Shown here: piece by piece, positions 22,657 through 37,106 of the stretch
Layout: each line of letters begins with the position of its first letter
How positions within the stretch are numbered: position 1 is the stretch's first letter
NCBI GenBank assembly: GCA_009995385.1
Contig: JAACPT010000002.1
Coordinates: 759-64,758, forward strand
Length of the DNA stretch: 64,000 nt
Source of the DNA: Candidatus Parcubacteria bacterium
GTDB taxonomy: Bacteria; Patescibacteriota; Minisyncoccia; Phycocordibacterales; UBA918
Direction: 5' to 3'
Translations under genes and position numbers: made by a program
The notes under the pieces: model-generated
The model's input: the letters and a program-made list of their open reading frames with translations, nothing else
Databases searched by the model: none
Told to the model about the DNA's origin: nothing

Positions 22657-24195
22657 CTACTTCAATACTGCTTTTACATCATTAATCTCTTTCTCTATCA
22701 AGGTCTCAGAAACTTCTAGTGCCTGCGTCAAGGCTTCAACTGCTTCTTTTTCCTTAGTTGATAGTCGTTTGCGTTTGGTAATCAAATTTATTTGGTCGTA
22801 GATTTCGTCACGCAACGCCGAAAAGATTTTTTCCATCTGATCTTGTACCTCACGAGTTTCTCGACGAAGTTTTTCTTCTCGCTCTTTCAAAGTTTTATGT
22901 TCGTACCAGAAGTAAATAATTTGAAGCAAAATGATTACCAAAAGAAGGAATACGAATAAATTGATTGGAGTAAAGAAATCCCAGATCGAACCTTCATCTA
23001 CTACCACCACTGGTTTTACCCAGCCGGCAGTAATCAGTACAGCCACACTACTCTCTCGCTTGTTACCAGCCATATCAACAGCTACTACTTTGACAGTGTA
23101 CGTGCCATTTTCGAGTTCTTTAAGGAGGTACCCCAATCTTGCTTCATCAGGACTGACTCGTAGTGGTTCTTTATCCGCCACGGTCATTTCGTAATAATCA
23201 ATACCTGACGTAACGTCATTAGCTTCAAAGCGAAGTAGTGGGAATGAGTCTGGAGAAGTACCTGCTTGCACATTAATAGCGTATGGTTCAGGTGGCGTTG
23301 TATCGATCTTGAGTTTACGGTTGGTCACTGCTCCCCAACCTACCTGATTCTTAAAGTTCACACTGACGTACTGAATACCATCTGTGACGTTGCTTTTTGA
23401 AATTACGAATTCTTCCACTGGCGGATCTATCACTGCCCCCTCGCTATCCTGGGGTTTATTTTCTGGATTGGTAGTCAGCTCAACTGCCACTACATTCACA
23501 TCAAACGGTAGTGTCCAAGAAAAGATACCTTCTGTTTTGTTATACCAAGTTTCTGGATCGAGGAATGTCTGTGAACCAACCTCTGGAGACCGTGGTGGAT
23601 CACCATAGATGATTGCTTGCTGACCGTCATCAGCTGTCGGTTCTTTTGGTGTTACTGTCGGAGTGGTATCTGACGGTGGCGGAGTAGTTGGTGTAGTAGC
23701 GGCTCCAACAGTGTACGAGCCAGGAGTGGCGTTTTTGAAAACATCAGTACCGCGTCCGTCAGCAGCAAGAATAGATGAGTTAGAAAAAGTCACTGAACCA
23801 GTCCCCTCGGTAATTGCTCGGAAGGTGATAGAAATTAGATTTGAAGGAGTCGTAAAAGGAGTGGGACTACCTCCACCAAATGTGATAGTACCAGCAGTGT
23901 TAGAAAAAGCTGGTTCTGTAGTCCATAAGGAAAAAGCCGAGCCTGTCTTACTGATACTAACAACCGAAAGCACCGTTGGATTAAACTTGAGTGTTGATTC
24001 TACCGCATTAATACTGTCAGTATTGGGAACTGCACGCAAGGTAACAGTAAAGGTCTGCCCAGCAGTATATGATCCAGTACTTGGCGCAAGTGAGAGGTCA
24101 GCAGCAAAGGTCGTACCAATGAGTAACAAAAAAAACATTGCTGTAGCAAACAACAGTTTTGTGATTTGGGCGTAGTGTCTAGTAAGGTACAACAT
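22657..24195 (-). CDS. Membrane-anchored cohesin-like domain protein with a signal peptide, cohesin-like and Ig-like domains, a TM helix and a C-terminal cytoplasmic coiled coil.
   Basis: Track ORF 22657..24204; an ATG at 24195 gives 'MLYLTRHYAQITKLLFATAMFFLLLIG'. The cohesin-like pattern is 'L.L.P.....GQTFTVTL......INAVESTLKFNPTVLSV.SI...........T.....NTAGTITFGGG.......LISITFRAI.EGTGSVTF'. The TM helix is 'FVFLLLVIILLQIIYFWY', followed by a charged coiled-coil tail. Confidence 0.6.
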   Translation of the reverse strand: MLYLTRHYAQITKLLFATAMFFLLLIGTTFAADLSLAPSTGSYTAGQTFTVTLRAVPNTDSINAVESTLKFNPTVLSVVSISKTGSAFSLWTTEPAFSNTAGTITFGGGSPTPFTTPSNLISITFRAITEGTGSVTFSNSSILAADGRGTDVFKNATPGSYTVGAATTPTTPPPSDTTPTVTPKEPTADDGQQAIIYGDPPRSPEVGSQTFLDPETWYNKTEGIFSWTLPFDVNVVAVELTTNPENKPQDSEGAVIDPPVEEFVISKSNVTDGIQYVSVNFKNQVGWGAVTNRKLKIDTTPPEPYAINVQAGTSPDSFPLLRFEANDVTSGIDYYEMTVADKEPLRVSPDEARLGYLLKELENGTYTVKVVAVDMAGNKRESSVAVLITAGWVKPVVVVDEGSIWDFFTPINLFVFLLLVIILLQIIYFWYEHKTLKEREEKLRRETREVQDQMEKIFSALRDEIYDQINLITKRKRLSTKEKEAVEALTQALEVSETLIEKEINDVKAVLK

Positions 24196-24215
24196 AAGGA
24201 ACAAAAACTTAAGCG

Positions 24216-24695
24216 TTAATTCGTGCGTTTGGGTAAGCCGCGACCACCAGTAACTTTTAGTTGCACTTTTTCTTTTTCACTTGGTTTTAAGAGTGGTAAA
24301 ATGAGTATCAGTACACCATTCTTTATCTTTGCTTCCGCTTGATCGATATTAACACTTTCTGGCAAAATGATGCGACGATAGAAATCTCCCCAAATACATT
24401 CCTCGGCAACATACGAACCCTTCACATTTTTTTTTGGGAACACAATGTATTCAGGGCGTATGCGCTTCCCTTCTATCAAGACAATATCGGCATCACCCTC
24501 AATTGAGACGTGAACATCATTCATATCGGCACCTGCTGACTGAGCATACACCACGATCATACGCTCGGTTTGATACACATCAACATGAAGTTGCGCTACC
24601 TTGTCAACTGCCGTTTCTTCAGCATCAGACAACAGCGACGCATCTTCGTTGCGTACCCCTTTACCTTTTAATCTCTGCAGAAAGGACATATACAA
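24216..24695 (-). CDS. Hsp20/alpha-crystallin family small heat-shock protein.
   Basis: Alpha-crystallin domain signature 'GDFYRRIILPESVNIDQAEAKIKNGVLILILP'. Confidence 0.85.
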   Translation of the reverse strand: MYMSFLQRLKGKGVRNEDASLLSDAEETAVDKVAQLHVDVYQTERMIVVYAQSAGADMNDVHVSIEGDADIVLIEGKRIRPEYIVFPKKNVKGSYVAEECIWGDFYRRIILPESVNIDQAEAKIKNGVLILILPLLKPSEKEKVQLKVTGGRGLPKRTN

Positions 24696-24991
24696 CTATT
24701 ATACTTACTTTTATTTACAGAAAGGATATTTACCCACACATTACCATCTATTGAAACGTTCCCATTCCTTGAAACCGAATCGTCCCCTGGAATTGATGTC
24801 TGGAATATTTTTGCGTCGCAGCTTCGGATATGATGACGTACACCCGACCTTGATAAGAGTTATATCGATGCCACTCATTCGCTTATTTTAGCATGATAGA
24901 AAGGGGTTTTTGAAGCGGGGGAAAAGCTGATTAAATAGAGAAACTATTTTACTCACCAAAAACACCGAGTCTATGGAATCGGTGTTTTCGT

Positions 24992-26896
24992 TTATCCCGT
25001 CCAGGCAAAGAGCATAATCGAGAAGTCAGTCAGACTGACCTTACTATCACGATTAATGTCGGCAGGTGGGTCGGAATCACCACCGTTACTATTCCACCAG
25101 AATAACAAAATCGAGAAGTCAATGAGGTTTACCTTACCATCACGGTTGAGGTCAGCATTAATTGGCACCTCGGCTGTTTTGCCAACACCGTAAAAAGTGT
25201 ACTCTGACCAGTTGGTCGTCGCGCCACCTTCTTGCGCAGACTTGGCGCGGATTTGATAGGTACCGACAGAAAAACTAGCAGTATCAACAGTGGTTGTCCA
25301 AAGTCCAGAAGCATTAGAAGTCACCGATATATCTTTCATGATAGTGGAGCGAAGTTTACCGTTTTGTAGTGATACAGTGGCGTTGGGAAGCGCGTATCCC
25401 GAAGCAGTCAGTGTTTCTCCAGGATTAACTGGATTGGGAGTAACTAGAATAGATGGTGCAACATTCACATTACTGAGCGCCGAAGTACGAGCACCAGTGA
25501 CCGTAAAGGAAGTACTAAAAGTCGAAGATTTGATACCATTAGGTCCAGTAGCATACACTCCAAAGGTGTACACCCCGCGCGCAATCTGATCAAGAGTAAT
25601 AGAGTAAGCCCCCGCAGCGGTAGCTTTGGTGGTATTTAAAAACTTCCCGTCTACCAAAATGCTTACCGTACTATTTGGATAGGCATACCCGGAAATCACT
25701 ACTCGCCCATCACCACTACGGTATGGCGCATCAGTAGATTCAAATCCACCACCCGCAGTGCTACCAGAACCTCCGCCCGAGCCACCGCCACCGCCACCGC
25801 CCGAGCCACCAGTACCAGAAGAACCTCCTTCCAGTGGTTGTTCCCCACTCGATTGTCCTGTCGTGCCACCTGAACCAGAGCCGTCACCGGTTCCGTCATT
25901 GCCTGACCCACTACCATCACCACTCACATCACCATCGGTATTGGCGGTACCAGTCGGAATATCATTCACCGAGAACTCAATAAGAAAGTCATCGGTATTC
26001 ATATTGCCTTCATCGTCAATACACCGCACAAAGAATCTCTGCAAACTATTTGGTACGACTGCCACAATAGTAGAGTGAAAAATGTAACCAGTATTAGAAA
26101 AAGTAGACGACATAGAAGCATACGGGGTGCCAGACTCCGTATCAAACCGACAATTCGAAAGTTCGTCAGTTTCTAGTGATATTTCTACACTGAGAGTAGT
26201 ACCACCAACGGTACTCGTTGGAGCAGGGTTAAATCGAAACGGCGGTACCGTCTCTCTCGTATCTACTCCTGGGAAGTTTACTTTCTCATTTAAGAAAATT
26301 ACAAAATTTGCGTTTGCCACTACGCCACCATCGTAGATTTCAACTTTTACTTTATGTACTCCAGTTGAAATGGCGTTCATAATTGGCTCAATATCACCAG
26401 GGGTCGTGGTCGTACCAGTAGATGTACTGAAGGTAGTGACAGGCAAAAACGCATTAGTAGTGTGGTTACCGATACGGAACTGCAAATGACTACCCGCAGT
26501 AAGCGTAAAATCTGGCGCCAGTGTATACCGAATAAAACCGGGTGTACCGGTAGTGAATTCAACCTGATCAATCCCTGATGCGGCTACTGCTGCGGCATCA
26601 CGAGGAAAACCATTTACCCACAACTGCACATTTCTTTCTGCAAACGTAGAAGTCGCGAGAAGAGTAAATTGGTCTGGTAAGGTAATCTCGATACTCCCAC
26701 CCGGAGAGACTGTCGTACCGACAGTAAATTCAAGGGTGTGATTTGAGTACTCACTCGGTCCTGAGTCGCTCAAGACATCTCGATACTCAGTAATATTAAG
26801 CGCTTCGACGAACTGTGGAAACAGTAAAAGTAGCCCCACTATCAATGCGATAGTGAGCGGTAGAAAAATCGACCACGATTTCTGGACGCTGAACAT
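24992..26896 (-). CDS. Secreted protein with an N-terminal signal peptide, a Gly/Ser-rich linker, Ig-like domains and a C-terminal type-I dockerin module.
   Basis: Duplicated calcium-binding dockerin segments 'DLNRDGKVNLIDFSILLFWW' and 'DINRDSKVSLTDFSIMLFAW' lie at the C-terminus. The signal peptide is 'MFSVQKSWSIFLPLTIALIVGLLLLF'. Confidence 0.7.
   Translation of the reverse strand: MFSVQKSWSIFLPLTIALIVGLLLLFPQFVEALNITEYRDVLSDSGPSEYSNHTLEFTVGTTVSPGGSIEITLPDQFTLLATSTFAERNVQLWVNGFPRDAAAVAASGIDQVEFTTGTPGFIRYTLAPDFTLTAGSHLQFRIGNHTTNAFLPVTTFSTSTGTTTTPGDIEPIMNAISTGVHKVKVEIYDGGVVANANFVIFLNEKVNFPGVDTRETVPPFRFNPAPTSTVGGTTLSVEISLETDELSNCRFDTESGTPYASMSSTFSNTGYIFHSTIVAVVPNSLQRFFVRCIDDEGNMNTDDFLIEFSVNDIPTGTANTDGDVSGDGSGSGNDGTGDGSGSGGTTGQSSGEQPLEGGSSGTGGSGGGGGGGSGGGSGSTAGGGFESTDAPYRSGDGRVVISGYAYPNSTVSILVDGKFLNTTKATAAGAYSITLDQIARGVYTFGVYATGPNGIKSSTFSTSFTVTGARTSALSNVNVAPSILVTPNPVNPGETLTASGYALPNATVSLQNGKLRSTIMKDISVTSNASGLWTTTVDTASFSVGTYQIRAKSAQEGGATTNWSEYTFYGVGKTAEVPINADLNRDGKVNLIDFSILLFWWNSNGGDSDPPADINRDSKVSLTDFSIMLFAWTG
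25756..25935. repeat. GGN/GCC-rich simple-sequence tract encoding the Gly/Ser/Asp linker of the dockerin protein.
   Basis: ccaccgccaccgccaccgcc... on the plus strand; the translation is 'GDGSGSGNDGTGDGSGSGGTTG...SGGGGGGGSGGGSGS'. Confidence 0.5.
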
Positions 26897-28584: not shown

Positions 28585-29685
28585 TTAGAAGGTCGGAGTA
28601 GCGATATATGTCAACGTTGTGTTGTAGTCATCAGCTGCTTCCTGAAGTGGAGTGATTTCGATTTGGTATCCGATATCAGTCTGTCCTACGTCATCACCAG
28701 TGGAATCAACGGTAAAGGTCGTACCATCTGATGGACCATTGTGAGCCATCACTACACGTGGAGTCGTACTAGCCGACACCCAAGTATTAGCGGCAGTAAA
28801 GTCTGTTGCCCCTTGCAGGTTTCCGTCTTCTGTGGTGAGACCCCAGTGACCGTACGTATTCTCATCAAGGAGAGAATTTGAAGGATTTGCCCAGGCGGCT
28901 GGAGTGTCGTCATAGGCACCGTCTGCAAAGCCATCAATGTCTGCTCCTGTCGATGATTGAAGATTTCCATCTTGCTCAACAGTCACTACAAAACCATTTT
29001 TAGCATTCGTCGTTACGTTAAGTCTTTGTGCCAACGTCTTGATCTGACCAGCGGTAAGGACTCCGAATGGAATTTCTGTTGGCGTGGTTGAACCGGTAGT
29101 CGAAGTACCATTGATGGCAGTTGAAGTAGCCAGACCAGTGATAGTGAAGTTGAAAGTTGTTTCAACGACAGCGGTCACGAGGACATTATCAATGATGGCG
29201 ACACGAGTCTTACCTGTGTCAGTTGGAGTAACTACGGCGATTTCGTATGAACCAGTGGTTCCAGGATTGGTAATCTTTCCGTCTGCGATCGCGACTACTA
29301 CTTCTTCTGTGGCGTTAGCGGTGGTGTCGAGTGAAAGAGTAAGCACCTCCCCAACAGCGGTCAATGAGTCTTGCGCTGCGGCTCCTCCGTTAACGGTTAC
29401 TGTTATGTCCCCGCCTGTCACAGTGTTTACTCCAGTAAAGCCAGCAGGGAACGTGATAGTGAAAGTGCTGGCAGCACCAAGAGTTGAAGCGGTTGGAATA
29501 GTAAAAGCGATGGTATGCCCTGAGGTGACGCTAAGGTCAGAGTCAGAGAGTGTATCACTAATGAGTGTGAGGTTAGCTGCTTGCGCAGTGGTATAGAGGC
29601 CGATTGACCAAAGTACCATTGCACTTGCAACAAGTGTCGCGACCACCCGTTGCGCAAAGCCAACGTGAGTTGCTTTTGCGAACAT
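28585..29685 (-). CDS. Secreted beta-rich surface protein, WxL-like (CscB/C-like); the assignment is tentative.
   Basis: Signal peptide 'VVATLVASAMVLWSIGLYTTAQA', Thr/Val-rich beta segments and a 'GHWGL' motif. It sits next to a DUF916/DUF3324 gene, as in Firmicutes csc clusters. Confidence 0.4.
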   Translation of the reverse strand: MFAKATHVGFAQRVVATLVASAMVLWSIGLYTTAQAANLTLISDTLSDSDLSVTSGHTIAFTIPTASTLGAASTFTITFPAGFTGVNTVTGGDITVTVNGGAAAQDSLTAVGEVLTLSLDTTANATEEVVVAIADGKITNPGTTGSYEIAVVTPTDTGKTRVAIIDNVLVTAVVETTFNFTITGLATSTAINGTSTTGSTTPTEIPFGVLTAGQIKTLAQRLNVTTNAKNGFVVTVEQDGNLQSSTGADIDGFADGAYDDTPAAWANPSNSLLDENTYGHWGLTTEDGNLQGATDFTAANTWVSASTTPRVVMAHNGPSDGTTFTVDSTGDDVGQTDIGYQIEITPLQEAADDYNTTLTYIATPTF

Positions 29686-29989
29686 ATTATATGAATATTA
29701 TTTTAAATAACTTTCTTCTACGTTGTACCAACGAGAAGGTTTCGATGGCAGCTTTTGTGGAGAAGATACTTGTTCCAAATTATTTGAGAAAATCTCAGCC
29801 TGTTATGGAACAGTGTATCACTGCTATCGAACTACCATTAGTATACAAAGTCTTTTTGAAATCGTCTTATGCTCACTGTTGATAACCGTAATCTCATGAC
29901 CTTTGTACTTTTTTTGTAGCTATATTTTGAGCCAATTTATGCTTACAGACTGGAAAATACCGATTGATTGGGTAAAGAACACGTGTCGA

Positions 29990-31246
29990 TTAGACACTGT
30001 CTGTCTTTACTACTGCTATATCAGACCAGCGAGTCGTATACGCTGGTGAACGGACTTCAGCTTTAGCCTGCCAAGCGGTGTTCTTAAGATGACTTCCGAA
30101 GAGAACTACTTCTTTCCCACCACGGCGATTAAGGGCATCAACCACCAGCATGAGACGCCCGTCGTCAGACGAACCAACCGCTCCAAATAACTTCAGATTT
30201 ACCCCCGCCACTGGAGTGAGCTCAAGTAGAGTCACCCCAACTTTTTTATACGGCACACCGGCTTCAAACAGCTCATCAAGAAGCGTTTCTGCCACCTGAA
30301 GGAGCGTCAAAGTATTATTGGTAGGGATAGGTAATATCGCCTCTCTTGTACCGCCACGTAGCACAAAATCACCGTAGCGACTAGGATATATAGCGATTCT
30401 GATATGACTTGTCACTTGCGCTTCGGCGCGCAAATCAGCCGCAGTATGACGGACATGATATGCCACTGCGTCTGCGAGTGTCGAACGATCAGTGACTACA
30501 TTCTGGAACGAGCGAGAACTCATGATACTGTGCTGGGGCTGGTGTTTTTGCTGTAGCAACAAGACCGATGTACCACTGAGCTCTTGTTGCAAACGTACTC
30601 CATTGCTACCAAAAAGTTTCACTAGTCGAGCCGAATCAACTGTAAGCAAATCGGCCACCGTTTGGATTCCATGTTGTTTGTACCGAAATTCTAGTTTCCC
30701 GCCCACTCCCCATATCTGAGCCAACGGAATCGCTTGAACTTCTTTGAACCAACTTGATCTATCAAGAACATGAATCCCAGTACCTTTTTTGGCTCGGCCA
30801 TTAGCGACTTTTGCCAATGTTTTGGTTGGAGCAATTCCAACTGACACTGGAATACCAACCGACCGTTCGACTTCATATTTTAACCGAGAAGCAACTGCAG
30901 ACGGTTCAACATCCACTCTGAAAAAAGCTTCATCTATAGAATACTGTTCGATCAAATCAAGCTCCGCACGCATTACCGAAAATACCCGCCTGGAGATATC
31001 GCGATACAGGGAAAAATGTGAAGAAAACACGGTAATACCGTGTTTTTGTACAGTGTCCTTTATCTTAAAATAAGGGACACCCATAGAGACACCAATGTCC
31101 TTTACTTCTTGAGAACGAGCGACAACACAACCGTCATTACTCGAAAGTACCAAGACTGGCTTTCCGATAAGGTCGGGTCTAAATAGCCGTTCGCACGAAA
31201 CGAAGAAATTGTTGCAATCAAGAAGTCCAATGAGTGGTGCGGTCAT
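29990..31246 (-). CDS. umuC: Y-family translesion DNA polymerase, UmuC-like (Pol V catalytic subunit).
   Basis: 'LLDCNNFFVSCERLFRPDLIGKPVLVLSSNDGCVVARS' at the N-terminus and 'SPAYTTRWSDIAVVK' at the C-terminus; both resemble E. coli UmuC. Confidence 0.8.
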   Translation of the reverse strand: MTAPLIGLLDCNNFFVSCERLFRPDLIGKPVLVLSSNDGCVVARSQEVKDIGVSMGVPYFKIKDTVQKHGITVFSSHFSLYRDISRRVFSVMRAELDLIEQYSIDEAFFRVDVEPSAVASRLKYEVERSVGIPVSVGIAPTKTLAKVANGRAKKGTGIHVLDRSSWFKEVQAIPLAQIWGVGGKLEFRYKQHGIQTVADLLTVDSARLVKLFGSNGVRLQQELSGTSVLLLQQKHQPQHSIMSSRSFQNVVTDRSTLADAVAYHVRHTAADLRAEAQVTSHIRIAIYPSRYGDFVLRGGTREAILPIPTNNTLTLLQVAETLLDELFEAGVPYKKVGVTLLELTPVAGVNLKLFGAVGSSDDGRLMLVVDALNRRGGKEVVLFGSHLKNTAWQAKAEVRSPAYTTRWSDIAVVKTDSV

Positions 31247-31264
31247 GCTAATAGTATAGCAAAA

Positions 31265-31287
31265 CGGCGCGCCCGTAGGGCGCGCCG
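31265..31287 (-). terminator. GC-rich hairpin (cggcgcgccc gta gggcgcgccg) followed by TTTT on the minus strand. It is an intrinsic terminator after the GH18 gene.
   Basis: Read directly from the sequence. Confidence 0.6.
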
Positions 31288-31300
31288 ATGTACTGCGTAC

Positions 31301-32500
31301 CTAGAATAATTTCCAAATGTCAGGATCTTCTTCTCCATCAACTTTGAAAATTGCGGCGCCACGTAAATTATATTTCTTTACTAACTCAAGCTTGTCTTCG
31401 ACTGCTTTAGCATCACTCCAGGTAACAAACCGAACTGGTATTTCTACCTTGGCAACTGTCGCCACGAGCAGTGCCTTGGCAGCTGCTTCATACCCATTTG
31501 GTGTTCCTTTAGGAGTAGGGAGTTGATTAAATATTTTCCACACGGAATCCTCGGGGAAATACGAGAGCACCGCTTCCCCACCTTCAGTACGTCCGATTAC
31601 TGCTCCGTACTTTTTTGAAAGTTCGAGAATACGAGGGTGGTTAAGGGAAGCAACTCGTTTGTAATCTCGGTACCAGTCCGGTGCAACAGTAATGTCCCAA
31701 GCGCGCCCATAGGTCGCTACGCCGAGCATAATCTTGTCAGCAGCAATATCCTTCAACGCTAATTTAATTACTTTTTCTACCCATTCATTATCTGCTACCG
31801 GCATATATGGCACTCCCCTTCGTTCATCGTTGAGTTTTAAATCAGCCCGTTGTTGATCGTATGCCATGATTTCAACCCAATCACAATAACGATTCATCGC
31901 CTTGTAATCATTGGCATATTCAATAACCTTCGGTACTTCACGCCAGCGAGAATCGGGCGGAGTCCGGGCTTCGATGGTACAAGTGAGATCCTTACTTCCC
32001 AGCGCTTTAGAGAGTTCTTTTAAGAATGAAGAATAGTGGTCTTTAGTCTCTGATTTCTTTGCTTCATAATCAATATTTACCCCATTGAAATCATACTTTT
32101 TTACCATTTTTACAATCGCTTTCACGTGCGCCGCTCGGGCAGTATCGTTGCTGAGTACAGCGTGAATCGCAACTCCATCAAACCACGCGATCGTGGGAAT
32201 AATAGCTACTCGACCTCTTTCCGCTTTTTTAAACAAAGCTCGCCAGTGCTTATCATCAAAATCGACTCGATTCTTGAGTGTTCCATCTAGATTGACCTCA
32301 TAGACGAATGGGTAAATTATATCGAGCGAATTTATGTTTTTTAGAGCACTTTTTGCTCCCGCCTCTTCTGTCCACCACGGTACCCAGGCTGCCACCTGCT
32401 GACTTGCACCATGCGCAAATGTTGGCACCAACAGAAAACCTAGCAGCATCAACCCCACATAGAATTGTTGGGGTATATTTTTGATATGTTTTTGTGTCAT
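31301..32500 (-). CDS. Secreted glycoside hydrolase family 18 (chitinase/YdhD-like) protein.
   Basis: Signal peptide plus the GH18 catalytic motif 'FNGVNIDYE' (DxxDxDxE). Confidence 0.75.
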   Translation of the reverse strand: MTQKHIKNIPQQFYVGLMLLGFLLVPTFAHGASQQVAAWVPWWTEEAGAKSALKNINSLDIIYPFVYEVNLDGTLKNRVDFDDKHWRALFKKAERGRVAIIPTIAWFDGVAIHAVLSNDTARAAHVKAIVKMVKKYDFNGVNIDYEAKKSETKDHYSSFLKELSKALGSKDLTCTIEARTPPDSRWREVPKVIEYANDYKAMNRYCDWVEIMAYDQQRADLKLNDERRGVPYMPVADNEWVEKVIKLALKDIAADKIMLGVATYGRAWDITVAPDWYRDYKRVASLNHPRILELSKKYGAVIGRTEGGEAVLSYFPEDSVWKIFNQLPTPKGTPNGYEAAAKALLVATVAKVEIPVRFVTWSDAKAVEDKLELVKKYNLRGAAIFKVDGEEDPDIWKLF

Positions 32501-32530
32501 ATACGTACAGACGTGAAGGAGGCTGCACTC

Positions 32531-32974
32531 TTACGATAGTACTCGTGCTGAACCAACCACCGCCCCCCAGATGAAGCAACCTTCAGTGTCATTGATTTCA
32601 ATCGGTTCATACTGCTCATTTTCAGAAACTAATTGAAAACCGTCAGTAGTCTTTTTTAGACGTTTAACCACCAATTCTCCATATACTGCCGCCACCACAA
32701 TCATTCCTGAAGCCGGTTCAATTGAGCGGTCAACCACCAAGATATCCCCCGCAAAAATACGTGCCCCTTCCATTGAATCACCAGAGACGCGGACAAAAAA
32801 GGTAGCGGTTGGATTTTCGATTAATAAATCATTTAAATCGAGTGGTTCTTCGACCAAATCATCACCCGGAGCTGGAAAGCCAGCTGCTGGTTGTGCGCTA
32901 TACATCGTCTGCTCGGTGATCTTTTCTATAGCAACAGGGGAGATGGCAGTGACTAATACCTTAGACTGTTTCAT
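32531..32974 (-). CDS. umuD: UmuD-like S24 peptidase (LexA/UmuD family, no HTH).
   Basis: 'AAGFPAPGDD...VRVSGDSMEGARIFAGDILVVDRS...VVKRL' with Ser/Lys dyad residues. The true start is probably the internal ATG at ~32974, because the track ORF overlaps the upstream gene. Confidence 0.75.
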   Translation of the reverse strand: MKQSKVLVTAISPVAIEKITEQTMYSAQPAAGFPAPGDDLVEEPLDLNDLLIENPTATFFVRVSGDSMEGARIFAGDILVVDRSIEPASGMIVVAAVYGELVVKRLKKTTDGFQLVSENEQYEPIEINDTEGCFIWGAVVGSARVLS

Positions 32975-33017
32975 ACGTCCAGTATACGCAACAAAGAGAC
33001 GTACAGCAAAAAAGCGT

Positions 33018-34172
33018 TTACACGATGACCGCACCACCAGTTAGTAGTATGTGGGTATACCACAATACTCCCATACCGCACAAAAGTAGCACTCCATATG
33101 CTACCTGTACCATGCGGAATCGACGTGCTTCTAGCACCACAGAAATCGAAAGTAATAAAGCGACAATTATACCCATAATTACATAGACAAACTGAAGCAC
33201 CGTGTTTGGCTGAGTAGCGATAGCTGGGATAGTGCTACCAGATTGCAGTGTTTCCGGGATAGTTATTGACGTGACAGCAAGACCAGATGAAGTAGCAATA
33301 AGGGAAGATTCAATCACTACAACATCTGCTGGGGCTTCTATCTCAGCGAGGGAGACATCAGGAAGAGTCGTTTCTTCTTCTTTCAGTGGTGGCGTACCAA
33401 CTTCTGATACTGAAGTTATTTCAGAGGTGACCGCTACTTCTTCCACTCTTTGACTACTCACCACTTTGGAATCTATTATTGAGACTTCTGATCTGGTCTC
33501 AGCTGATAAGACAGCTGGTGATTCTATAGAAGTTGGTACCAGAGACTCAATTGTTTTTGCGACAACTGGAGCGGTGGGAGGAGGAGTGACAACTGGTGGT
33601 GGAGTGACTACTGGACGAGTAGCTGGTGCGCCAAAAAGTTGGACGACATAAACCGTATCATACCCTTCAAACGTACCCTTGGCAGTACCGACACCAATCT
33701 CGGTATACTGTGGACCCACGATATTTTCACGATGGGTTAGTGAATTCATCCACGCATCCACTACTTCCGTTGAATCGGTAAAATGAATAGCGAGGTTTTC
33801 TCCAGCGTGCGCGTAAACGTAGCCAACCTGATCAAACCAGTACCATGGTGAAATACCATCAGGGCTATAGTGTGCGAAGTATTGGTTTTTTGCCATATGC
33901 TCAGCTTTACGCTGTGCAGCTCTATCCAAGACTTCACTACGCACCAACGGACTAACCGCGTTCTGTGCTCGCTCTTGATTGGTAAGGTCAACCACGACCG
34001 CTGGCAATACGGTGGAGACCAGCCAATCTGAAGATTTCCAAAGAATTGCCTGCAGGTTAGCTCCAACAAAAGTAAGTAGTACTAGCGCGCCCATGAGCGA
34101 CAGAGAAAATTTTTGCAGGATAGTAAGACCACGCGGATAACTATGCATATAGTTACTATTAAACAATATCAA
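33018..34172 (-). CDS. CAP/SCP (YkwD-like) domain protein with a Pro/Thr-rich linker and a C-terminal TM anchor.
   Basis: 'DLTNQERAQNAVSPLVRSEVLDRAAQRKAEHMAKNQYFAHYSPDG...AGENLA' is the CAP domain. This is followed by 'VTPPPVVTPPPTAPV' and a C-terminal hydrophobic segment. Confidence 0.65.
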   Translation of the reverse strand: MILFNSNYMHSYPRGLTILQKFSLSLMGALVLLTFVGANLQAILWKSSDWLVSTVLPAVVVDLTNQERAQNAVSPLVRSEVLDRAAQRKAEHMAKNQYFAHYSPDGISPWYWFDQVGYVYAHAGENLAIHFTDSTEVVDAWMNSLTHRENIVGPQYTEIGVGTAKGTFEGYDTVYVVQLFGAPATRPVVTPPPVVTPPPTAPVVAKTIESLVPTSIESPAVLSAETRSEVSIIDSKVVSSQRVEEVAVTSEITSVSEVGTPPLKEEETTLPDVSLAEIEAPADVVVIESSLIATSSGLAVTSITIPETLQSGSTIPAIATQPNTVLQFVYVIMGIIVALLLSISVVLEARRFRMVQVAYGVLLLCGMGVLWYTHILLTGGAVIV

Positions 34173-36521: not shown

Positions 36522-37106
36522 TTATATACGTAATGTGTCAGGATTTAATGCAGTAGCGAGCTGTTTTTTACCGCGATGGAGGAGCGTACCGACTGAACCG
36601 ACTGGTATTTCTAAAATATCTGATATCTCTTCATACTCTTTATCCTCAAAAAAACGCAAAATAATAACCTCGCGATATTTTTCGTCAATTTTTTCGAGTG
36701 CTTTATTGAGTTCCTTTACATTAATCATTTTATCAAACTGTTCATCAACTGATTCCTCCTTACTTTTAAGGAGCATCAATAATTCATCACTGTCACCAAT
36801 GAGATGCCCTTCAGGGCGAACATTCTGCTTACGGTACCAACTAATTGCTTCATTGTGCGTAATTCGGTAAATCCATGAGGAAAATCGTAACGAAGTATCA
36901 AAGCCGTTGAGGTTACGATAAGCTTTAAGAAATATTTCTTGCAGTACATCTTGTTGGTCTTCCAACTGGCGGATACCAAGTCGAGCGATGTACCGAGTGA
37001 GCTTTGCTTCATACCGGTCGACAAGCACACCAAAATACTCCTTGTCAGATAAAGTTAGTTGTACCAGCTCTTCGTCACTAGGTGGGAGTTGTAGTAGTTG
37101 TTCCAT
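36522..37106 (-). CDS. ECF-type RNA polymerase sigma-70 factor.
   Basis: Region 2 reads 'DVLQEIFLKAYRNLNGFD...FSSWIYRITHN'. Region 4 reads 'REVIILRFFEDKEYEEISDILEIPVGSVGTLLHRGKKQL'. Confidence 0.85.
   Translation of the reverse strand: MEQLLQLPPSDEELVQLTLSDKEYFGVLVDRYEAKLTRYIARLGIRQLEDQQDVLQEIFLKAYRNLNGFDTSLRFSSWIYRITHNEAISWYRKQNVRPEGHLIGDSDELLMLLKSKEESVDEQFDKMINVKELNKALEKIDEKYREVIILRFFEDKEYEEISDILEIPVGSVGTLLHRGKKQLATALNPDTLRI

Follow-up and report, generated by a model that had tools for sequence, protein, structure and literature searches.

A predicted three-unit arrangement of umuD, a GH18 glycosidase gene and umuC in a Candidatus Parcubacteria genome

DNA polymerase V (pol V) is strongly mutagenic, and in model bacteria it is checked by LexA repression of a single umuDC operon; the umuD and umuC genes are adjacent in well-studied bacteria. 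The locus described here lies in a 64,000-nucleotide (nt) stretch of contig JAACPT010000002.1 from a Candidatus Parcubacteria bacterium (assembly GCA_009995385.1), referred to throughout as the window, and has a different layout. An initial annotation of this DNA had placed a gene for a secreted glycoside hydrolase of family 18 (GH18) between separated umuD and umuC genes, and all of these features are indeed present. Reading along the minus strand, they are umuD (32531..32974), encoding the 147-amino acid (aa) S24 autopeptidase subunit of pol V, the GH18 gene (31301..32500), encoding a 399-aa secreted glycoside hydrolase, and umuC (29990..31246), encoding a 418-aa UmuC-type Y-family translesion polymerase. 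The accompanying statement that umuD and umuC do not form an adjacent operon here also stands, since the GH18 unit intervenes. Comparison with related loci indicates that the arrangement is an old one, and that each of the three genes would be transcribed as a unit of its own.

The assignment of UmuD is supported by several profile searches. Peptidase_S24 (PF00717, 1e-28) is the sole domain in its 147 residues, and there is no N-terminal DNA-binding domain. The protein passes the NCBIfam model for the autoproteolytic subunit of pol V (NF007621; 138.9 bits against a cutoff of 110) and falls below the cutoff of the LexA model TIGR00498 (69.5 against 110.95 bits). The Ala31-Gly32 cleavage site, Ser67 (in GDSM) and Lys104 (in VVKRL) are invariant among 20 orthologs. 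The mechanically called open reading frame (ORF) extends to a GTG at 33037; the ATG at 32974 is favoured by the N-termini of the orthologs and by the position of the predicted promoter. When the 64-kb window was searched by tblastn with UmuD, no further S24 paralog was found. In one related locus (L054:2818-3243) a second UmuD-like tblastn match, 42% identical, lies just upstream of and overlaps umuD, and may represent a partial duplication or a frameshifted copy.

UmuC contains the IMS (PF00817, 1e-33), IMS_C (PF11799, 1.5e-15) and DUF4113 (PF13438, 3e-15) domains, and its translation shows the acidic motifs DCNNFF and SIDEAF. The best NCBIfam model is that for UmuC itself (NF002955), with a score of 288.4 bits that is under the model cutoff of 431, and the best DinB model scores approximately 159 bits. 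The solved structural relatives are DinB/Dpo4 polymerases. On these grounds the umuC product is classed as a divergent UmuC-type polymerase.

The protein encoded between them matches Glyco_hydro_18 (PF00704) at 3e-28, with 99.9 bits against a cutoff of 29.6. Its N-terminus, judged by eye, resembles a Sec signal peptide, with basic residues, a hydrophobic stretch and the sequence AHG/AS. The nearest solved structures are 4q6t, 5jh8, YaaH (4s3k), YdhD (3cz8) and SleL (4s3j), and the motif NGVNIDYE aligns with the xGINxDFE of solved relatives, including 4q6t and 5jh8. Among 24 orthologs, Asp144-x-Glu146 and M212-x-Y214-D215 are invariant. The protein is probably an active secreted glycosidase, and perhaps acts on peptidoglycan, an activity that would suit both the envelope gene block in which it lies and the type of promoter proposed for it below. 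The SleL/YaaH and YdhD spore-cortex hydrolases of the same family are among its closest structural relatives and share the variant catalytic motif xGxNxDxE; the protein described here differs from them in having no LysM domains, and the organism is no spore former.

To compare the gene order, the window proteins were searched by tblastn against 29 species-level genome loci, to which a metagenome scan added 80 loci of the same group, giving a total of 109 classified loci. The sampled relatives comprise those with proteins at least 52% identical in the homolog search and, for the metagenome loci, UmuD at least 60% identical. They are metagenome-assembled genomes labelled Nomurabacteria, Kaiserbacteria, Paceibacteria and Elulimicrobium, all of which are Patescibacteria. 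The order CAP-umuD-GH18-umuC-P366, where CAP is a gene for a CAP-domain protein and P366 a surface-protein gene (28585..29685 in the window), was found in approximately 20 of the 29 genome loci and in the majority of the 80 metagenome loci. Across the conserved loci the GH18 proteins are 55-76% and the UmuC proteins 42-69% identical to those of the window.

Four layouts account for the loci in which the region is complete. The most frequent is umuD-GH18-antisense Nudix-umuC (25 of 109), followed by umuD-GH18-umuC, as seen in the window (23), umuD-antisense Nudix-umuC (12) and umuD-umuC (7); in the other loci the region is incomplete, mostly owing to short contigs that end within it. The antisense gene encodes a 156-aa NUDIX protein that is RppH-like. 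Among the 29 genome loci, 10-11 have it between GH18 and umuC, and among all those classified the count is 33 (25 complete four-gene loci and 8 partial ones); where it is present, umuD and umuC cannot be co-transcribed.

In a neighbour-joining tree of UmuC, the four-gene form is found on all deep branches, and the forms without GH18 are nested within one subclade. In this tree L030, L009 and L036, all without the Nudix gene, fall in a group with the window. Traces of deletion are also evident. Comparison of one locus (L042:1770-2150) with a close relative (L039:4915-5859) revealed a clean 944-bp internal deletion in GH18, which could reflect genuine variation in the population or an error of assembly; a mini-ORF is left behind, in which the GH18 signal peptide is fused to the last ~45 residues. 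In three further loci (L057:688-800, L059:7485-7600 and L066:456-640) there is no GH18 gene, yet the GH18 promoter motif described below has been kept just 3' of umuD. After the motif comes a short hydrophobic ORF (MKNLSINFLLHVLLLMYLGY...) with the character of a signal peptide, apparently a remnant of that of GH18.

The UmuC tree and the deletion remnants together place GH18 between umuD and umuC as the ancestral condition; the order that they point to for the ancestor of the sampled relatives is umuD, GH18, an antisense RppH-like Nudix gene and umuC. The sole change specific to the window lineage is loss of the Nudix gene. Other lineages lost GH18, or GH18 and Nudix together, with compact umuD-umuC pairs re-formed by later deletion. 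In two loci that have lost both genes (L106:1187-1220 and L113:495-507), umuD and umuC lie 5 nt apart or overlap by 4 nt and there is no umuC promoter, so that a classical coupled umuDC operon appears to have been rebuilt there through deletion. The interval between GH18 and umuC seems to be a hotspot of accessory genes, which differ from one relative to another. As named by eye from the translations, it contains a RelB/RelE-like pair and an oxidoreductase-like ORF in L008 (7358-9841), a Fic/RhuM-like ORF in L013 (7447-8454) and a zeta-toxin-like P-loop ORF in L026 (7198-8114).

Elements that could direct transcription of each gene were then compared across these loci. A -10-like hexamer is situated 4-10 nt before the umuD start in 69 of 90 distinct upstream regions, most commonly at a distance of 6 nt, and takes the form TATACT 30 times. 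In the window the predicted -10 box (TATACT, 32981..32986, minus strand) is 6 nt upstream of the ATG, a spacing so short that transcription is predicted to begin on the start codon and to give a leaderless mRNA. The distance between umuD and the CAP gene is no more than 20 nt in roughly one locus in four, and where the two abut umuD is probably also transcribed from upstream. Shine-Dalgarno sequences are nearly absent from the window, GGAG, GAGG, AGGA or AAGG being present within 20 nt upstream of 3 of the 36 gene starts between 24216 and 63241, and several first genes carry a TAnnnT box 6-8 nt before the start, which suggests that leaderless or Shine-Dalgarno-independent initiation is widespread. 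The missing Shine-Dalgarno sequence before GH18 was considered as a sign of translational insulation, and was dropped because almost no gene in the window has one.

Upstream of GH18, 25 of 26 genome orthologs have a bipartite motif, G[TA]AAGA-N15-CGTC; over all distinct upstream regions the figure is 72 of 75, and among the three that lack the motif L054 and L055 have a version with one mismatch. The spacer is always 15 nt long and has near-zero sequence information. In the window the motif (32534..32510, minus strand) consists of a -35 block, GTAAGA (32534..32529), within which lies the TAA stop codon of umuD, and a -10 block, CGTC (32513..32510), which ends 9 nt before the GH18 ATG. It is the sole strict match in the 64 kb, where 0.23 would be expected, and of the 81 matches that 850 kb of loci contain, at least 73 are located at GH18. 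GH18 has the motif even in loci with a different set of neighbouring genes (L022, L023 and L033). It resembles an alternative-sigma promoter of the SigW or extracytoplasmic function (ECF) type, and is treated here as the predicted promoter of GH18.

The consensus for SigW promoters in Bacillus is TGAAAC-N16-CGTA. The GH18 motif can be written as TG[AT]AAG-N16-CGTC, and so shares with that consensus the CGT core and equal spacing, as well as a secreted envelope enzyme as target. It differs in that its -35 element ends in AAGA rather than AAC. A candidate sigma factor is encoded nearby (36522..37106, minus strand; Sigma70_r2 and r4_2 domains) in the same conserved syntenic block, and related loci also have it upstream. 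Among NCBIfam models SigW matches it best, a further point of likeness, although the score of 117 bits is below the cutoff for that equivalog; moreover, the system departs from that of Bacillus in that the search for an autoregulatory site gave none and that only one main target was seen. That this sigma factor serves the GH18 promoter is a guess. A second strict copy of the motif occurs in two related loci (L099:10851 and L100:14389) downstream of a P139 homolog and before another gene at the edge of the locus, a gene that the sigma factor reading the motif might also serve in that lineage. Additionally, GAAAC-N16-CGTA, an exact match to the SigW-type consensus, is present on the minus strand of the window at 29719..29743, ~34 nt upstream of P366; ~3.5 chance matches to this pattern are expected in the window, so that the match is a lead at most.

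One alternative to independent units is that the genes form a functional module, with GH18 co-expressed by read-through from umuD and having a role after DNA damage, for example as a modulator of the cell wall or of division like the SOS-induced YneA or ChiZ. SOS-linked cell-wall proteins exist in other phyla, and such a role would fit a GH18 protein of a peptidoglycan-acting subfamily. It would also fit with the lack of a terminator between umuD and GH18 in the window, with the umuD stop codon lying inside the GH18 -35 element, and with the persistence of umuD-GH18 adjacency over deep divergence. Nevertheless, GH18 has an invariant promoter of its own, which it retains in the loci where umuD and umuC are not its neighbours, and in L013, L014 and L019 a hairpin separates umuD from GH18. 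A whole subclade has lost GH18 from the locus and kept both umuD and umuC and, conversely, L018 has kept umuD-GH18 without umuC. Moreover, synteny in small genomes is often conserved in the absence of a functional link. The module is considered unlikely.

A similarly low probability is attached to the view that G[TA]AAGA-N15-CGTC is a transcription-factor site, or some other signal, as opposed to a promoter. The departure of AAGA from the usual AAC core of ECF promoters could be taken in its favour, as could the lack of a copy at the nearby sigma factor gene. Two short invariant blocks, a fixed and uninformative 15-nt spacer and a near-constant distance to the start codon are, however, features of the motif that argue for a promoter, and no sigma-70-type -10 box is present between the motif and the ATG. 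The close likeness to the SigW consensus points in the same direction.

The predicted GH18 unit, as favoured here, ends at a hairpin (31287..31265) that begins 13 nt after the GH18 stop codon and comprises 10 G-C pairs with a CTA loop, followed by TTTTG. Together, the stem-loop and the TTTT tract (31264..31261) make up a predicted intrinsic terminator (31261..31287, minus strand). No other terminator-like site in 22-42 kb comes close to the hairpin in strength, and the region folds with an energy of -30.4 kcal/mol (z = -4.5), with none of 200 shuffled sequences being as stable. The hairpin that had been annotated as a clean terminator at 31265..31287 between GH18 and umuC is present as stated. 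The stem sequence, GGCGCGCC, is unique to the hairpin within the window, and the same stem is found in L009 and L036. Hairpins of unrelated sequence occupy the equivalent position in other loci without the Nudix gene (L010, L039, L042, L046, L047, L060, L103, L110, L112 and L114), and those of other lineages often have an A-tract before them and a T-tract after them that runs into the -10 box. A few loci, L027 and L098 among them, have little or no hairpin. Structure and position are thus kept and sequence is not, indicating an RNA terminator rather than a protein-binding site, and we read the hairpin as the putative terminator of the GH18 unit, which would insulate umuC from transcription of GH18.

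Alternatively, the hairpin might mainly be a palindromic DNA operator over the umuC -35 region, or an RNA element controlling umuC. In favour of this, it sits exactly at the expected -35 position, its two GGCGCGCC sites, absent from the rest of the window, form a perfect palindrome, and its T-tract has only four residues. The unrelated stems found at the same place in other lineages, often flanked by A- and T-tracts, point instead to selection on RNA structure as opposed to a protein-binding sequence. The relatives with no hairpin, and the lack of a shared dyad across umuC upstream regions (see below), also speak against an operator, which is rated as slightly less credible than either of the two alternatives discussed above.

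Downstream of the proposed terminator, the order of elements before umuC is the hairpin, TTTTGCTATACT, ATTAGC and the ATG. The sequence includes a predicted extended -10 element of the form TGn-TATACT (TGCTATACT, 31253..31261, minus strand) located 6 nt before the start codon, the TG of which uses the last T of the terminator T-tract. Among 62 distinct umuC upstream regions, 51 have a -10-like hexamer 4-10 nt before the start, with TGn in 36, TATACT in 31 and TATAAT in 11. In the genomes with the antisense Nudix gene upstream, umuC could be transcribed only from a promoter of its own. The question posed in the initial annotation of how umuC is regulated is thereby answered in part, in that umuC has its own predicted extended -10 promoter, but an operator is not recognisable.

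The search for an operator covered eight published types of LexA box (E. coli, Cheo, alpha, cyanobacterial, Leptospira, Bdellovibrio, Verrucomicrobia and Xanthomonas). With up to one mismatch allowed, none of the eight gave an intergenic match, and the matches within coding regions each had one mismatch; for the Cheo type, there was no match at this stringency within 29900..33100. Similarly, a search of 41 umuD and umuC upstream regions for a shared dyad (a 4-mer, a gap of 0-12 and the reverse-complement 4-mer) revealed nothing above the level seen with shuffled sequences. The earlier observation that no LexA box lies near umuD or umuC consequently holds for intergenic DNA and all eight types at this tolerance. 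Since the Ala-Gly site and the Ser/Lys dyad of UmuD are intact in 20 orthologs, it is plausible that pol V is controlled post-translationally, via cleavage of UmuD.

The remaining alternative, namely that the GH18 gene landed recently in an intact umuDC operon of this organism, can be dismissed as the least probable of all, for although adjacency of umuD and umuC is normal in well-studied bacteria and the GH18-umuC gap takes foreign cargo in L008, L013 and L026, the same gene order is found in over 100 related loci, with UmuC down to 42% identity, the four-gene form extends over the deep branches of the tree, deletion remnants mark the forms without GH18 as derived, GC content is flat across the region and GH18 has no flanking mobile-element genes. 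The proposal in the initial annotation of an insertion into, or rearrangement of, a mutagenesis operon is therefore contradicted as far as a recent event is concerned, by the conserved order, the tree and the remnants; insertion of GH18 before divergence of the sampled relatives is possible. Synteny in relatives had also been put forward as a means of detecting a conserved three-gene unit with a common promoter. The shared order was found, in the loci noted above, whereas a shared promoter was not, each gene having its own conserved promoter-like element.

Taken together, the locus is best explained as an ancient split pol V locus, belonging to a Paceibacteria-type lineage of Patescibacteria and made up of three transcription units, with a terminator-shielded umuC and with control exerted mainly via cleavage of UmuD, an explanation to which we assign a probability of approximately 0.7. 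In this scheme umuD would be transcribed from its TATACT -10 box as a leaderless mRNA and, with no terminator between umuD and GH18, the transcript may read through. GH18 would be transcribed from the alternative-sigma promoter GTAAGA-N15-CGTC, possibly served by the neighbouring ECF sigma factor, and its transcription would end at the strong GC hairpin. Directly after the terminator, umuC would be transcribed from its own extended -10 (TGCTATACT), again as a leaderless mRNA, the hairpin thus shielding the gene for a mutagenic polymerase from transcription of the envelope genes. Control of pol V activity would be largely post-translational, through the self-cleavage of UmuD that RecA stimulates.

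Several points weigh against this explanation. The promoters and the terminator are all predictions from conservation, and with just four T residues after the hairpin, termination may be partial. A divergent LexA operator, outside the eight known box types, is possible. No copy of the GH18 motif was found upstream of the ECF sigma factor gene, either in the window or in approximately 20 loci. The scarcity of Shine-Dalgarno sequences (3 of 36 genes) makes their absence before GH18 uninformative with regard to translational coupling. Finally, the UmuC tree is midpoint-rooted, with no outgroup and no support values, and the term ancestral refers to the sampled relatives only.

With the SOS-regulated umuDC operon of the E. 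coli type, the proposed split locus has in common both proteins, the Ala-Gly site and Ser/Lys dyad of UmuD, the IMS, IMS_C and DUF4113 domains of UmuC, and the position of umuD upstream of umuC on one strand. It differs in that the genes are apart and are predicted not to be co-transcribed, being separated by an independent GH18 unit (in the ancestor, by an antisense Nudix gene also), in that each has its own leaderless-type promoter, and in that the searches described above found no LexA box. A second point of comparison is Acinetobacter, the UmuDAb protein of which is ~200 aa in length; UmuD of the window, by contrast, has 147 aa and the S24 domain only, and nothing suggests a repressor role. 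UmuDAb has an N-terminal DNA-binding domain (PMC4807011), and in Acinetobacter, as here, a umuD-like gene and umuC are unlinked and are controlled without a canonical LexA box (PMC11332147, PMC13062779).

The locus forms part of a conserved block of envelope genes, which also enclosed the four genes of the ancestor; in the window these lie on the same strand, in the order ECF sigma factor, putative membrane anti-sigma factor, a 167-aa protein, sortase, CAP-domain protein, umuD, GH18, umuC and surface proteins, one of the surface proteins 3' of umuC carrying a dockerin-type domain. Horizontal transfer of GH18 was considered from base composition and rejected, there being no GC anomaly across the region. 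An identical UmuC sequence is present on contigs of several groundwater-type metagenomes and in assembly GCA_009991545.1. Further along the minus strand, two surface proteins encoded within 22657..26896 show a weak cohesin-like match (PF00963, from gene tables) and a dockerin type I match (PF00404, 9e-8), which hints at a surface assembly of the cohesin-dockerin type adjoining the sortase gene. Almost no long ORFs are listed in the first 22 kb of the window because a giant gene (minus strand, 1..~22633) runs off its start; gene callers assign it 7,710-7,790 aa on identical contigs, and it has Pentaxin and DUF2341 matches.

The locus represents a known type of pol V locus in a new layout, and a new mechanism is so far without support. 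It is conceivable, although improbable to much the same degree as an operator at the hairpin, that GH18 takes part in the response to DNA damage through umuD read-through and an envelope-stress promoter, linking damage to remodelling of the cell wall or host-attachment surface, in combination with LexA-free control of pol V. If GH18 did have such a role, it would be a counterpart in Patescibacteria of the SOS-induced cell-wall and division factors of the YneA/ChiZ type. We know of no experimental work on transcription control in Patescibacteria, and the analysis yields a predicted ECF-like promoter, together with its target, that can be tested in this group. The deletion-derived umuD-umuC pairs imply that gene loss can rebuild an apparent operon from a split locus. 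More generally, a widespread environmental lineage with a very small genome appears to maintain umuD and umuC as separate, apparently operator-free units and, if this is confirmed, the control of mutagenesis in these bacteria would depend on the cleavage of UmuD and on how strong the promoters are, and not on repression by the SOS system.

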